Source: a virus
Taxonomy: Duplodnaviria; Heunggongvirae; Uroviricota; Caudoviricetes
Length of the DNA: 11,882 nucleotides
IMG/VR virus record: IMGVR_UViG_2548876958_000016
Strand: one strand, 5' to 3'
The notes beneath the pieces are model-generated. The model was not told the DNA's origin. It ran no database searches and saw only the letters and a list, made by a program, of their open reading frames with translations. Position 1 is the stretch's first letter; each line of letters starts with the position of its first letter. Shown piece by piece: positions 3,060 through 6,477 of the stretch. Both the position numbers and the translations under genes were made by a program.

Positions 3060-3359
3060 ATGAAACTTAAATATTCTGGCTTAACTGCCAGTGGCAACAC
3101 TCACCCTAAATTTACGCGCGGTGATATTTACCGCGACCAGTACGGCGGCACGGTAATGATTAAGGACGTGGAAGAACGGCGCGTAACCTACCGCCGTGAA
3201 GGTTACGAATATGATTGCGTGATGCCTGTTTATCAGTTCCGGCGTGATTTTTCTCTGGTACAGACCGCGCCGCATAACGTGCCCACCAGCAACGCCAGGG
3301 CACGGGCAAACATCCAGAAGCTGAAAACCATGGTTAACGGATTCAGGGGCAAGAAATGA
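3060..3359 (+). CDS. Hypothetical protein (99 aa)
   Basis: GGAGA SD upstream of ATG 3060; its stop overlaps the helicase start (ATGA at 3356-3359). Translation MKLKYSGLTASGNTHPKFTRGDIYRDQYGGTVMIKDVEERR... No family recognised. Confidence 0.65.
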   Translation: MKLKYSGLTASGNTHPKFTRGDIYRDQYGGTVMIKDVEERRVTYRREGYEYDCVMPVYQFRRDFSLVQTAPHNVPTSNARARANIQKLKTMVNGFRGKK

Positions 3360-4756
3360 AAAGCGCACCGAACTTAAAAAAACAGCCTTACGACAAGATG
3401 ACCGAAGTCATTATTTTTGCGGGTAGTGATGCCTGGGCACATGCGAAACAGTGGCAGGAACAGGACGGGCGACTGGCTGGCGATAATGTGCCTCCCGTTG
3501 TGCTGGCTGATGATCAACTGGATGAACTGGCAGACCTGAGAATCATCGACGAGGGGCGCTATTGTGTCCGGCTGTACAAGGCAGGCCACATCAGGCCATC
3601 AAATATTAATGCCATTGCGCACAAGCTGGCGGCGGCGGGTGTAACTGATGCGAATTATTACCCCGAAGGGATGCACAGCCATATGCGGGAGAACTGGCGC
3701 GAATACCTGGAACGGGTGCGCGGGAAAGAGCCGGCGGAAGAAAAAAACCACCAGCGAAAAACCACGCTACCGATGAGCGTTGGATCTACCGGATACGACA
3801 CGCAACTGGATTACGTGGTTAAGGGGATTATTCCGGCGGTATCGCTATGCAGCATATACGGGGCTAGCGGGTCCTATAAATCATTCCTTGCCGGATCGTG
3901 GGCGTGCCATGTTGCCACTGGTCGCCAGTGGGGAGGCCGCAGGGTTGCACATGGTGCGGTTCTCTATGTGGTTGGTGAAGGCGGTATAGGTGTTCCGCGT
4001 CGTGTAAAAGCCTGGGAGGTTGTGCACGATGAGCAGGTGAAAAATCTGTATCTGGTAAACCGCCCCATCTTTCCGGCTGCCCCGCTTGATGTTGATGAAA
4101 TGGTTATCGCTGCCCGTCAGGTGGAGCGGGAAACGGGTAAACCTGTACGCATGATTATTCTGGATACGCTGGCGCGTTGCTTTGGTGGGAATGATGAAAA
4201 TGATTCCCGTGATATGGGGGCGTTTATCCGTGGTTGTGACGAACTGAAACGACGCACAGGGGCCACGGTGCTGGTGGTTCACCATTCCGGCAAGGATGAG
4301 ACGAAAGGCGCGCGCGGTTCCAGTGCATTTCGTGCTTCGCTGGATGCTGAATACCGGATACGCAGGGAGGACGCAGGAAGCGAAGCGCTGGTTATCTCAT
4401 GCACCAAAATGAAGGACGCGGAGGAACTCAAAGAAGCCGCATATGACTTACGCGTGGTGGAGCTTTTTACCGACGCTGACGGTGAATTAATCACGTCGCT
4501 GGTGGTGGTGGATGATCCGCGCCCTCCTGTTGAACTGGAGCGCATCGAGGAGGCAGGGAACAAGACGGAAAACCATACCGCGCTATGGGGGTGCATCCGT
4601 TCACGCACACAGAACGGCGACAAGTGCACGATCCCGCTGTTACGTGATGACATGAAAAAGCTGGGGTATGAAATGAAAAACTTCCGGCGCTGGCTGTACA
4701 AGCTGGAAAAAGATGGGGTTATTCGTATCGATGGGGATGATGTAGCGCCGCTATAA
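3356..4756 (+). CDS. Replication initiator/helicase, RecA-fold AAA ATPase (RepA/DnaB-like, PICI Rep-type), 466 aa
   Basis: Walker A GASGSYKS (within IYGASGSYKSFLAG), Walker B-like hhhhD (RMIILDTLARCFGG) and a VLVVHHSGKD motif typical of RepA/DnaB-family helicase domains. N-terminal ~150 aa is a separate domain, possibly origin-binding. Last gene of a coupled operon and immediately followed by an iteron array. Confidence 0.85.
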   Translation: MKSAPNLKKQPYDKMTEVIIFAGSDAWAHAKQWQEQDGRLAGDNVPPVVLADDQLDELADLRIIDEGRYCVRLYKAGHIRPSNINAIAHKLAAAGVTDANYYPEGMHSHMRENWREYLERVRGKEPAEEKNHQRKTTLPMSVGSTGYDTQLDYVVKGIIPAVSLCSIYGASGSYKSFLAGSWACHVATGRQWGGRRVAHGAVLYVVGEGGIGVPRRVKAWEVVHDEQVKNLYLVNRPIFPAAPLDVDEMVIAARQVERETGKPVRMIILDTLARCFGGNDENDSRDMGAFIRGCDELKRRTGATVLVVHHSGKDETKGARGSSAFRASLDAEYRIRREDAGSEALVISCTKMKDAEELKEAAYDLRVVELFTDADGELITSLVVVDDPRPPVELERIEEAGNKTENHTALWGCIRSRTQNGDKCTIPLLRDDMKKLGYEMKNFRRWLYKLEKDGVIRIDGDDVAPL

Positions 4757-4946
4757 AAGTGAGGAGCAAAAGCGAGGGGGATAGAAAGAGGGCCAAAATT
4801 AGCCCGCTCTCCCTCACTTTTCGACCTGTATACATCCTCAAAAGTGAGGGGTAAAAAAATACTTATGAAACACACACATAGAAAAACCGAAAATCCCAAC
4901 TGCGACGAAGTGAGACGCTTGAAAAAGTGAGGCGAAAAAGTGAGAG
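4755..4946. repeat. Iteron array (candidate satellite replication origin): repeated AAAAGTGAG(G/A)
   Basis: Direct copies at 4755-4764, 4840-4849, 4923-4932 and 4937-4946 (the last two 14 bp apart); a degenerate copy GAAGTGAGAC at 4908-4917; an inverted copy CCTCACTTTT at 4812-4821. All lie in the intergenic region directly downstream of the rep-like gene, the usual ori position in PICIs. Confidence 0.6.
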
Positions 4947-4956
4947 GTTGCGAGAA

Positions 4957-5208
4957 ATGACCCAAAAACGCAGAGACAGAACAGAGCCAAAATATAAAGC
5001 GTTAGACATGACTGAGCACACCTTAAAGGTGGCAATCAGAACGATAGACCGCCACACGCGGGAAGGATACGCGAAGGAACATCCCGACCTGATAAGCGCA
5101 TTCATGACCACGGCGGCGGCAAACTTTGCCACGCTGACAGAACGGGAGATTGCCGAAGCGGAACAGGTAACAACCATCAACGTTAAAACCGGAGAGGTGG
5201 AATTATGA
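4957..5208 (+). CDS. Hypothetical protein (~83 aa; track ORF starts at 4927 inside the iterons)
   Basis: ATG 4957 is the first in-frame start after the iterons; GAGG at 4943-4946 could serve as SD. The stop overlaps the ssb start (ATGA 5205-5208). Translation MTQKRRDRTEPKYKALDMTEHTLKVAIRTIDRHTREGYAKEHPDLISAF... An alternative start is ATG 5008. Confidence 0.5.
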   Translation: MTQKRRDRTEPKYKALDMTEHTLKVAIRTIDRHTREGYAKEHPDLISAFMTTAAANFATLTEREIAEAEQVTTINVKTGEVEL

Positions 5209-5615
5209 CGGCACAGATAGCCGCTTACGGGCGGCTGGTGGACGACCCGCAGGTAAAACAGACCAGCAAGGGCACACCGATGACGCTGGCGCGTATGGCG
5301 GTATCTTTGCCATGCAGCCAGGCACAGGACGGACAGGCGACGTTATGGTTATCGGTCATCGCATTTGGCAAACAGGCCGACTTCCTGGCTAAACATCAAA
5401 AAGGCGATGTTGCCAGCGTATCCGGCACGATGCAGGTAAGCCAGTGGACCGGACAGAACGGAGAAACGCGGCAGGGCTGGCAGGTTATCGCAGACAGCGT
5501 AATCAGTGCCCGCGCGGCACGTCCAGGCGGGAACAGACGCAAAACCACAGGCACACAGGGTAATCAGCCACCAGCGGGAGGCGATGACCCTTACGGTGAT
5601 GATATTTCGTTCTGA
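5205..5615 (+). CDS. ssb: Single-stranded DNA-binding protein (SSB-like OB-fold), 136 aa
   Basis: SD GGAGAGGTGG with 4-nt spacer. N-terminal GRLVDDPQV...LWLSVIAFGKQADFLAKHQKGDVASVSGTMQVSQWTGQNGETRQGWQVIAD follows the SSB OB-fold pattern (compare E. coli SSB GNLGQDPEV...[50 protein letters not shown]). A Gly/Pro-rich linker and acidic tail DDPYGDDISF resemble the canonical DFDDDIPF tail. Confidence 0.75.
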   Translation: MTAQIAAYGRLVDDPQVKQTSKGTPMTLARMAVSLPCSQAQDGQATLWLSVIAFGKQADFLAKHQKGDVASVSGTMQVSQWTGQNGETRQGWQVIADSVISARAARPGGNRRKTTGTQGNQPPAGGDDPYGDDISF

Positions 5616-5625
5616 GGGGGTGACG

Positions 5626-5898
5626 ATGGTACATGACCGCATAGCGGAGGAACTGGAGGCGAAAGGCTTTTACCGGAGGGCGGCGGCGCGATGGGGTGAA
5701 GTCATGCAGCTGGTGGAGACAGACAAGGAACGGCATCACATCACGATGCGACGGCTGGAATGTTCAAGGAAGGCACAGAGGGCACCGGAGCCGCCGGATA
5801 ATTTCGGAGACCTGAAAAAGGCAGTCGATCGCACTTATGCCGAAATGGGTATAGATGGTGCTGGTGATGAAATATGGCGCAATTACCAGGACAGCTAA
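5626..5898 (+). CDS. PerC-family transcriptional regulator-like protein (90 aa)
   Basis: SD GAGGGGG (5614-5620), 5-nt spacer, ATG 5626. Translation MVHDRIAEELEAKGFYRRAAARWGEVMQLVETDKERHHITMRRLECSRKAQ... matches the PerC-like motif (AEELEAKG-Y/W-RRAA-RW) as I recall it from prophage PerC homologues. The longer 5506 ORF in the track is an upstream extension overlapping ssb in another frame. Confidence 0.7.
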   Translation: MVHDRIAEELEAKGFYRRAAARWGEVMQLVETDKERHHITMRRLECSRKAQRAPEPPDNFGDLKKAVDRTYAEMGIDGAGDEIWRNYQDS

Positions 5899-5904
5899 TC
5901 AAAC

Positions 5905-5928
5905 AGCCGGAGAAATCCGGCTTTTTTT
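5905..5928 (+). terminator. Intrinsic terminator (copy 1 of a thrice-repeated GNRA-loop hairpin)
   Basis: AGCCGGA (5905-5911), loop GAAA, TCCGGCT (5916-5922), then a T-run ending at 5928; 6 nt after the perC-like stop. Confidence 0.7.
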
Positions 5929-6024
5929 GCACCAGTTGAAACGGTATGGCGCATTACCGGGTTTTCGTCACGGTCAGGCATAGTTACTATCTGAAACAAA
6001 CAGACACAACAGAGGAAAAAAACA

Positions 6025-6268: not shown

Positions 6269-6291
6269 AGCCGGAGCAATCCGGCTTTTTT
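6269..6291 (+). terminator. Intrinsic terminator (copy 2 of the repeated hairpin)
   Basis: AGCCGGA (6269-6275), loop GCAA, TCCGGCT (6280-6286), T-run to 6291. Confidence 0.7.
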
Positions 6292-6416: not shown

Positions 6417-6477
6417 TTGCATAAAATGCAATTCTTATTATAATCAGGACTGGATAAACATCCAGTCCTGATTTTTT
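6417..6477 (+). promoter_or_regulatory. Candidate late (capsid-operon) promoter with a promoter-proximal hairpin plus T-run
   Basis: Perfect -10 TATAAT (6439-6444) with possible -35 TTGCAT (6417-6422, 16-bp spacer). An 11-bp inverted repeat TCAGGACTGGA/TCCAGTCCTGA (6443-6453 and 6460-6470) followed by TTTTTTT (6471-6477) lies between the -10 and the first late gene (ATG 6501). Confidence 0.45.

Follow-up and report, generated by a model that had tools for sequence, protein, structure and literature searches.

What does a small SSB (a protein that binds single-stranded DNA) with an unusual last few residues do on a mobile element, and does the PerC-like gene that follows it tie that element to its host? 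Both genes lie in IMGVR_UViG_2548876958_000016, an IMG/VR virus record assigned to the Caudoviricetes. We analyzed the whole stretch of 11,882 nucleotides (nt), here called the window, in which the interval 5205-5898 runs exactly from the start of ssb through the stop of perC. A first-pass annotation, made from the sequence alone, had suggested that the acidic tail of this SSB is altered in a way that could retarget its partners toward satellite replication or set it in competition with the host or helper SSB, and that the PerC-like gene may connect island induction to host gene regulation. In our view, the region is likely where the replication module ends in a phage-inducible chromosomal island (PICI) of Escherichia coli that resembles EcCICFT073 and is integrated between roxA and phoQ. 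The features on which the argument turns are the following (aa, amino acids).

5205..5615, plus strand: ssb, encoding a 136-aa SSB with an OB fold (residues 1-101), a short basic disordered linker (residues ~102-126), and the acidic tip DDPYGDDISF
5607..5609, plus strand: TCG codon for Ser135, the penultimate residue, equivalent to Pro176 of the host SSB; the family has CCG (Pro)
5626..5898, plus strand: perC, a pchE allele of 90 aa, starting 10 nt past the ssb stop, with a GAGGGGG ribosome-binding site 5 nt upstream

The ssb open reading frame (ORF) begins at ATG 5205, a start codon with a good ribosome-binding site, and ends with a TGA stop at 5613-5615, giving a product with the C-terminus ...GGDDPYGDDISF. 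This product scored above threshold against both Pfam PF00436 (60.6 bits; cutoff, 26) and TIGR00621 (57.3 bits; cutoff, 53.95) and matched PHROG 44, "single strand DNA binding protein." An AlphaFold2 model (15 relatives; mean pLDDT, 80.6) revealed a confident OB fold at residues 1-101, with pLDDT values of >90 across residues 1-100, and disorder at residues 104-127. When this model was used as a Foldseek query, the best matches were solved bacterial SSBs (E ~6e-9; TM on target, 0.7-0.8). By sequence, the ssb product is a short member of the bacterial SSB family and is predicted to bind single-stranded DNA (ssDNA).

The aromatic residues through which the E. coli SSB contacts ssDNA are W40, W54, F60, and W88. 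An alignment with the host protein had been proposed as a check on the tail; run with MAFFT, it gave 31% identity between the K-12 and island SSBs. Three of the four contact aromatics were kept (W48, F54, and W81 aligned with W54, F60, and W88, and Cys37 took the position of W40), as was a D-D-I-x-F tip, but the penultimate Pro is now Ser. The linker is about 25 residues long in the island SSB versus about 55 in the host SSB. Right after the OB fold (SSB residues 101-112; window 5505-5540) lies a basic motif, S-A-R-x-x-R-P-G-G-x-[RK]-[RK], that is kept even in satellite SSBs as distant as 45% identity and has no counterpart in the host SSB. We also considered a phage origin of the island SSB and rejected it: a tblastn search of 50,697 phage records returned no close homologue, with nothing above 35% identity and no enterobacterial phage.

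How altered, then, is the tail? The K-12 SSB ends in ...MDFDDDIPF, and the island tail does differ from the host DFDDDIPF, as the first-pass annotation had stated. The difference is smaller than that description implies, however, given that four Asp residues are found among the last ten in the island SSB and four in the host SSB, that the D-D-I-x-F tip is retained, and that the whole departure from the family consensus is one transition, CCG to TCG at position 5607 (Pro135Ser; Ser/Pro tail peptide pair, ...GGDDPYGDDISF / ...GGDDPYGDDIPF). Of the 120 closest protein clusters, the tail reads DDPYGDDIPF in 63, DDPYGDNIPF in 23, and DDPYGDDISF in only 5. Pro135 is present in 64 of the 67 cluster representatives of 136 aa, across which the tip varies less than the OB domain does (0.12 versus 0.25 bits per site). 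These data indicate that the tip is constrained in this subfamily and that Ser departs from the constraint. On the sequences compared, the family tip is the canonical DDIPF, and the island tail does not represent a novel type.

In the wider family, sampled as representatives at 50% identity, a terminal Phe preceded by acidic residues is general. Pro predominates at the penultimate position, where Gly, Asn, Ala, Ser, Asp, Glu, and Thr occur as well, which places Ser within the natural range for mobile-element SSBs. The tips of SSBs from other Enterobacterales genera (loci L006-L036) included DDETPF, DDEAPF, DDEDPF, DDQIPF, YDDDF, HEDDF, and DDESGF. Such diversity among satellite tips is far above what we would expect of chromosomal SSB tips.

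The Pro-to-Ser change has a well-known equivalent in the host gene. The island tip DDISF, with Ser in place of the penultimate Pro, is identical to the tip encoded by ssb-113. This allele (P176S) permits no DNA replication above 30°C, confers hypersensitivity to DNA damage, and impairs chi binding (PMC3045619), and the corresponding peptide SSB-Ct113, WMDFDDDISF, is a standard control. Because the phenotype of ssb-113 is known, weaker partner binding would be expected of the island protein as well. By this analogy, the most likely effect of Pro135Ser is a lower affinity for host partners, with no gain of new ones, and for the DDISF tip nothing beyond weaker partner binding can be inferred.

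If Ser weakens the tip, why is it so frequent? Across 5,426 complete E. coli genomes, the exact 66-mer encoding the tail was found with TCG in 324 and with CCG in 37. Hosts of the Ser allele include O157:H7, O55:H7, O145:H28, O103:H2, O111:H8, and strain 042, so that several serotypes and two integration sites are represented. All of the abundant Ser copies nevertheless sit on one helicase-to-ssb block, at least 99% identical in 356 genomes; a few Ser alleles are also found on other OB-domain backgrounds (P0003, P0022, and P0023). As judged from these sequences, the frequency of Ser is most simply explained by one mutation hitch-hiking on a successful island lineage for which Shiga toxin-producing E. 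coli (STEC) has been heavily sampled. The proposal that the tail has been retargeted is thus not borne out: over half of the closest clusters carry the Pro version, the prototype island EcCICFT073 has DDIPF, and Ser is a lineage-specific single-nucleotide polymorphism.

The same data bear on the possibility that the Ser tip was selected, either to cover island ssDNA without recruiting ExoI, RecJ, RecQ, PriA, and chi or to compete with the host SSB as a poor recruiter, so biasing replication or repair during helper infection. That the change hits a conserved and functionally critical residue, equals a mutation known to impair chi binding, and is common, at more than one integration site, in several serotypes, and on a few other OB-domain backgrounds would all fit such selection. 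Its frequency, however, is accounted for by one mutation and hitch-hiking on the near-clonal block; the prototype EcCICFT073 is transfer proficient and has Pro; other lineages vary at the -4 position (N, G, or E) with no pattern; and the penultimate residue varies naturally in the wider family. We therefore regard adaptive attenuation or retargeting of the tail as quite unlikely. Less probable still is the claim that a natural ssb-113-like tip, through poor recruitment of chi, PriA, ExoI, RecJ, and RecQ or through competition with the host SSB during helper infection, tilts replication or repair toward the island or against the helper; if true, it would explain an island lineage present in about 6% of complete E. 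coli genomes.

Could the tail instead serve as a handle for the island's own replication protein and not for host proteins? We scanned one genome per species with a 7-sequence SSB alignment and obtained 41 loci, 29 of which came from Enterobacterales and encoded a full-length SSB homologue (L005-L032 and L036). The SSB gene lay just 3' of a P4-alpha-like primase or helicase gene in 28 of these 29 loci. Together with the lack of a phage relative, this adjacency suggests that SSB is a near-constant part of the satellite replication module. A handle of this kind would suit such neighbors, and mobile-element PolA-SSB pairs are predicted to make contact via variable SSB C-terminal tails (PMC10061031). 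Moreover, in the first five to eight islands compared, Ser went with a RepA helicase and Pro with a primase. This pattern failed on wider sampling: diverged islands with a RepA helicase carry GIPF, DIPF, and NIPF tails, primase islands carry IPF, and SSBs that are ~98% identical serve islands whose replication proteins are of three kinds unrelated to one another (a RepA helicase, a primase of 584 aa, and one of 710 aa). The tail thus does not covary with the replication protein, and its tip matches the host-type consensus. We consider a replication-protein handle very unlikely, and the earlier idea that the tail is directed to satellite replication finds no footing here, since Ser sits on one near-clonal block with no link to the type of replication protein.

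A last possibility for the tail is that the SSB gene is a decaying passenger and that Ser is the first step of its loss. The change does mimic a loss-of-function mutation of the host gene, the cell has the host SSB at its disposal, and no need for the island gene has been demonstrated. Decay fits poorly, however, with an ORF that is undamaged and at least 99% identical across about 356 genomes, with a family that is kept next to the replication gene across many genera, with a tip that is visibly constrained, and with a start codon that is coupled to an upstream ORF and has a good ribosome-binding site. Of all the readings weighed here, we give this one the least credence.

We then asked what the second gene encodes. 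The perC product matched Pfam PF06069 over its full length (146.1 bits; cutoff, 22.6; 3.9e-43; residues 1-89 on profile positions 1-89 of 90), which confirms that the gene is PerC-like. RefSeq annotates the same 273-nt gene and names its product "PerC family transcriptional regulator." The overlap with ssb that had been reported for this gene was rejected: 10 nt with a ribosome-binding site separate the two genes, and only a mechanical ORF from GTG 5506 overlaps. We place the start at ATG 5626 because the RefSeq gene is 273 nt long and the Pfam match begins at residue 1. The protein is identical to that of strains 042 and EC4115, and 82 of its 90 residues (91%) are identical to those of the Sakai PchE, ECs_1588. 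By sequence, perC is an allele of pchE.

The AlphaFold2 model of the PerC protein is all-helical, with confidence in residues 1-50 (three helices, the N-terminal half). A Foldseek search of the PDB with this model gave no match better than E = 2.7 and no recognizable DNA-binding fold or helix-turn-helix, and a profile search of PDB sequences gave nothing better than E = 0.5. Against the AraC negative regulator (ANR) family NF033650, PerC scored 20.4 bits, below the cutoff of 32 (residues 7-52), and the likeness is a resemblance only. RefSeq also calls a 42-aa "hypothetical protein" at 5855-5983, which overlaps the 3' end of perC and crosses a terminator hairpin; this gene call is probably spurious.

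Much of what this regulator does is already published. The "group 3" perC homologue pchE was studied by Andreozzi, Uhlich, and colleagues in overexpression and deletion experiments (PMC6265319, PMC7369912). Its effect is small on the LEE (locus of enterocyte effacement), a virulence island; it strongly represses csgD and curli, and it raises flhDC and fliC, with an increase in motility. Its basal expression in uninduced cells falls under SOS- or prophage-inducing treatment (PMC6265319, PMC7369912). The regulatory check that had been suggested for the PerC-like gene has therefore largely been made, albeit on a 91%-identical allele. As for the proposed link between island induction and host regulation, the host effects of PchE stand, but a fall in pchE under SOS- or prophage-inducing conditions is a poor fit to the idea that island induction drives them.

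Taken together, these results lead us to propose the following role for the island SSB. Upon induction by a helper phage, SSB would coat the ssDNA exposed at the island origin by the helicase or primase, and its acidic D-D-I-x-F tip would dock with the SSB-interacting proteins of the host, in the manner of the host's own SSB. One C-to-T transition in this island lineage would have converted DDIPF to DDISF, and the resulting loss of affinity for host partners may be tolerated, as the host SSB is still present. The Ser allele would then have travelled with a successful island, with no redesign of the SSB. PchE, for its part, would act as a small all-helical regulator that represses csgD and curli, raises flhDC and fliC, and barely affects LEE, as published for the 91%-identical allele.

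Several points weigh against this proposal. Heavy sampling of STEC clones may account for part of the success that the Ser lineage seems to have had. That Ser is a tolerated hitch-hiker is an assumption, since it hits a position otherwise conserved in the subfamily. Host residues W40 and H55, the latter at the tetramer interface, are replaced by Cys37 and Leu49 in the island SSB. A literature search on the role of SSB in PICIs returned nothing relevant, and no experiment shows that any PICI needs SSB. Finally, most of the published PchE phenotypes were obtained by overexpressing the Sakai-type allele, 91% identical to the island allele, from a plasmid.

Do ssb and perC belong together? In E. 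coli islands, both classical and capsid forming, perC lies ~10 to 20 nt after ssb. In the 29 Enterobacterales loci, a PerC homologue lies 90 nt or less downstream of SSB in 10 and elsewhere in the locus in 3 more; the other 16 loci have no perC, and other small genes follow ssb there. Some E. coli islands likewise have ssb without perC (L051 and L052). We take perC to be a frequent but optional companion of the near-constant SSB. In three loci (L013, L017, and L027), ssb is followed, where E. coli has perC, by a gene for a protein of ~155 aa that by eye looks ProQ/FinO-like (...LELLxxxWPxAFxLxxPRPLxxG...).

This close spacing in E. coli and its recurrence in other genera are what would be expected if ssb and perC formed a functional pair for the island, with PerC acting mainly inside it, for example, as a switch for the head and packaging operon, and with its host effects secondary. 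The three terminator-like hairpins between perC and the capsid genes and the little effect of PchD and PchE on LEE point the same way. Many related islands nevertheless lack perC, published data show a basal pchE level without induction that drops upon SOS treatment, AlpA is the known PICI activator, and no promoter or operator was identified. We find a functional pair of this kind unlikely and retain the proposal in which PchE acts on host genes.

The remaining features of the window place both genes on the island.

1-609: 3' end of the integrase gene, cut by the window; full copies are found in EC4115 and strain 042
3060-3359: DUF4222 protein (RgdR) of 99 aa with an RGD motif (FTRGDIY); its stop overlaps the helicase start
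3356..4756, plus strand: RepA-family (AAA_25) replicative helicase (Pfam AAA_25, 2.4e-43; PHROG 2850, 5.7e-267)
4755..4947, both orientations: six or seven AAAAGTGAGG-type iterons around an A+T-rich core, directly 3' of the helicase gene
4957..5208, plus strand: 83-aa conserved protein, PHROG 1231 (4.9e-53), annotated as a 252-nt coding sequence in identical islands
5905..5929, plus strand: terminator-like hairpin AGCCGGAGAAATCCGGCT followed by T7, starting 7 nt past the perC stop

The module thus runs in the order RepA-family helicase, iteron origin, 83-aa ORF, ssb, perC, and terminator. In identical islands, RefSeq names the product of 3356-4756 "helicase RepA family protein." The iteron region contains repeat families D1-D3 and I1-I5, and 6 of the 7 matches to AARYGAGRS in the window fall inside 4755-4947 (expected, 1.35; none of 200 shuffles reached 7). 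The origin of PICIs is located 3' of the rep gene (Fillol-Salom 2018, PMC6092414), and, from its sequence, the segment 4755-4947 is probably the replication origin of the island. The TGA stop of the 83-aa ORF overlaps the ssb start (ATGA, 5205-5208), which suggests translational coupling of the two. Upstream, the DUF4222 protein corresponds to RgdR/ECs1581 (Flockhart et al.), for which activation of LEE type III secretion has been published.

Downstream, the hairpin at 5905-5929 is predicted from sequence to close the replication/ssb/perC transcription unit. Terminator-like sites number 9 in the segment 4700-6750, compared to 2.4 expected. From perC to the capsid operon, a stretch of 570 nt contains three terminator-like hairpins (5905-5922, 6269-6286, and 6442-6473). 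Nearly the same stem is shared by the first two (AGCCGGAG[A/C]AATCCGGCT plus a T-run), and that of the third is 14 bp long. In CFT073, too, perC is followed by the same hairpin. These three hairpins may gate read-through into the packaging genes.

Beyond them lie head genes for a gpE-like capsid protein, a gpD-like decoration protein, a scaffold-like protein, and a Nu1-like small terminase, and phoQ is on the opposite strand within the window. With an integrase, an AlpA-like gene, a replication module, lambda-type head genes, and no tail or lysis genes in the window, the first-pass annotation was right to call the SSB satellite borne. The layout agrees with the description of Gram-negative PICIs (Fillol-Salom 2018), namely, int followed by alpA in the same orientation, a replication gene with an origin 3' of it, and the absence of tail and lysis genes, in islands of about 10 to 15 kb. 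For EcCICFT073, whose helper is lambda, and EcCIEDL933, helper phage-dependent excision, replication, and packaging were shown experimentally.

The insertion site between roxA and phoQ is that of OI-51/CP-933C/Sp7. The island is identical in O157:H7 EC4115, and the copy in strain 042 is integrated in tqsA. At least 80% of the window is covered in 357 of the 5,426 complete E. coli genomes, and identical DNA is annotated, with both proteins named, in hundreds of RefSeq E. coli genomes. Within O157:H7, the roxA/phoQ site holds the capsid-forming PICI Sp7 in Sakai and an EcCICFT073-like island with lambda-type head genes in EC4115, both with ssb-pchE.

What, then, is new at this locus? Annotation and literature already cover both genes, the way they are paired, the satellite that carries them, and what PchE does as a regulator: a putative ssDNA-binding gene and PchE were described on OI-51 in 2012 (PMC3378721), PerC variants on E. 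coli PICIs were reported in 2018 (PMC6092414), and PerC-family regulators are common in Gram-negative PICIs (Pick et al. 2025, PMC11773190). For one detail alone we found no precedent in the literature, namely, the natural occurrence of the ssb-113 tip in a widespread island lineage. As a discovery, this matters little. Our literature search found no study of what SSB does for a Gram-negative PICI, though SSB is a near-constant companion of the Enterobacterales satellite replication gene. The DDISF allele, which occurs alongside the Pro version in otherwise near-identical islands, is a natural experiment on the role of the SSB tip in satellite replication and, as such, an experimental handle and not a new kind of system.

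Among known systems, EcCICFT073, the prototype Gram-negative PICI (cassette C_RS06995/C_RS07000), occupies the same roxA/phoQ site as the window island and shares its order of int, alpA, Icd-like gene, DUF4222/RgdR, replication gene, small ORF, ssb, perC, gpE-like capsid gene, and gpD-like decoration gene. Its SSB differs from the window SSB at 3 of 136 residues and has the canonical tip DDIPF. It also differs in carrying a primase in place of the RepA-family helicase and in its PerC, which has 82 aa and a shorter, diverged C-terminus. Sp7/OI-51/CP-933C, or EcCIEDL933, of O157:H7 Sakai and EDL933 has the same site and the same ssb-pchE cassette (ECs_1587/ECs_1588), with 133 of 136 SSB residues and 82 of 90 PchE residues identical to those of the window. 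Sp7 is, however, a capsid-forming PICI (HK97-type capsid, protease, portal, and TerS/TerL); it encodes a large primase and an SSB with the tip DGIPF.

Among regulators, the closest case in which a PerC-family PICI gene was tested on host virulence genes is EcCIMP1_025 of PICI EcCIMP1, which silences LEE1 and is ~40% identical to the PerC-like proteins of EcCICFT073 and EcCIEDL933; the latter two had no effect on LEE1 fusions (PMC11773190). The PerC of enteropathogenic E. coli and the group 1 Pch proteins (PchA, PchB, and PchC) of enterohemorrhagic E. coli are small mobile-element regulators of the same PF06069 family. Group 1 Pch proteins activate ler/LEE and are SOS induced, whereas PchE (group 3) has little effect on LEE, represses csgD, and raises flagellar genes, and its expression is lowered by SOS. 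For the tail, the counterpart is SSB-113 (P176S), which has the same last five residues, DDISF, as the window SSB. SSB-113, however, is a mutant form, made in the laboratory, of the essential host SSB, a protein of 178 aa with a long Gly/Gln/Pro linker, whereas the window SSB is a naturally occurring allele of an accessory SSB of 136 aa, 31% identical to that of the host, in cells where the host SSB is still present.

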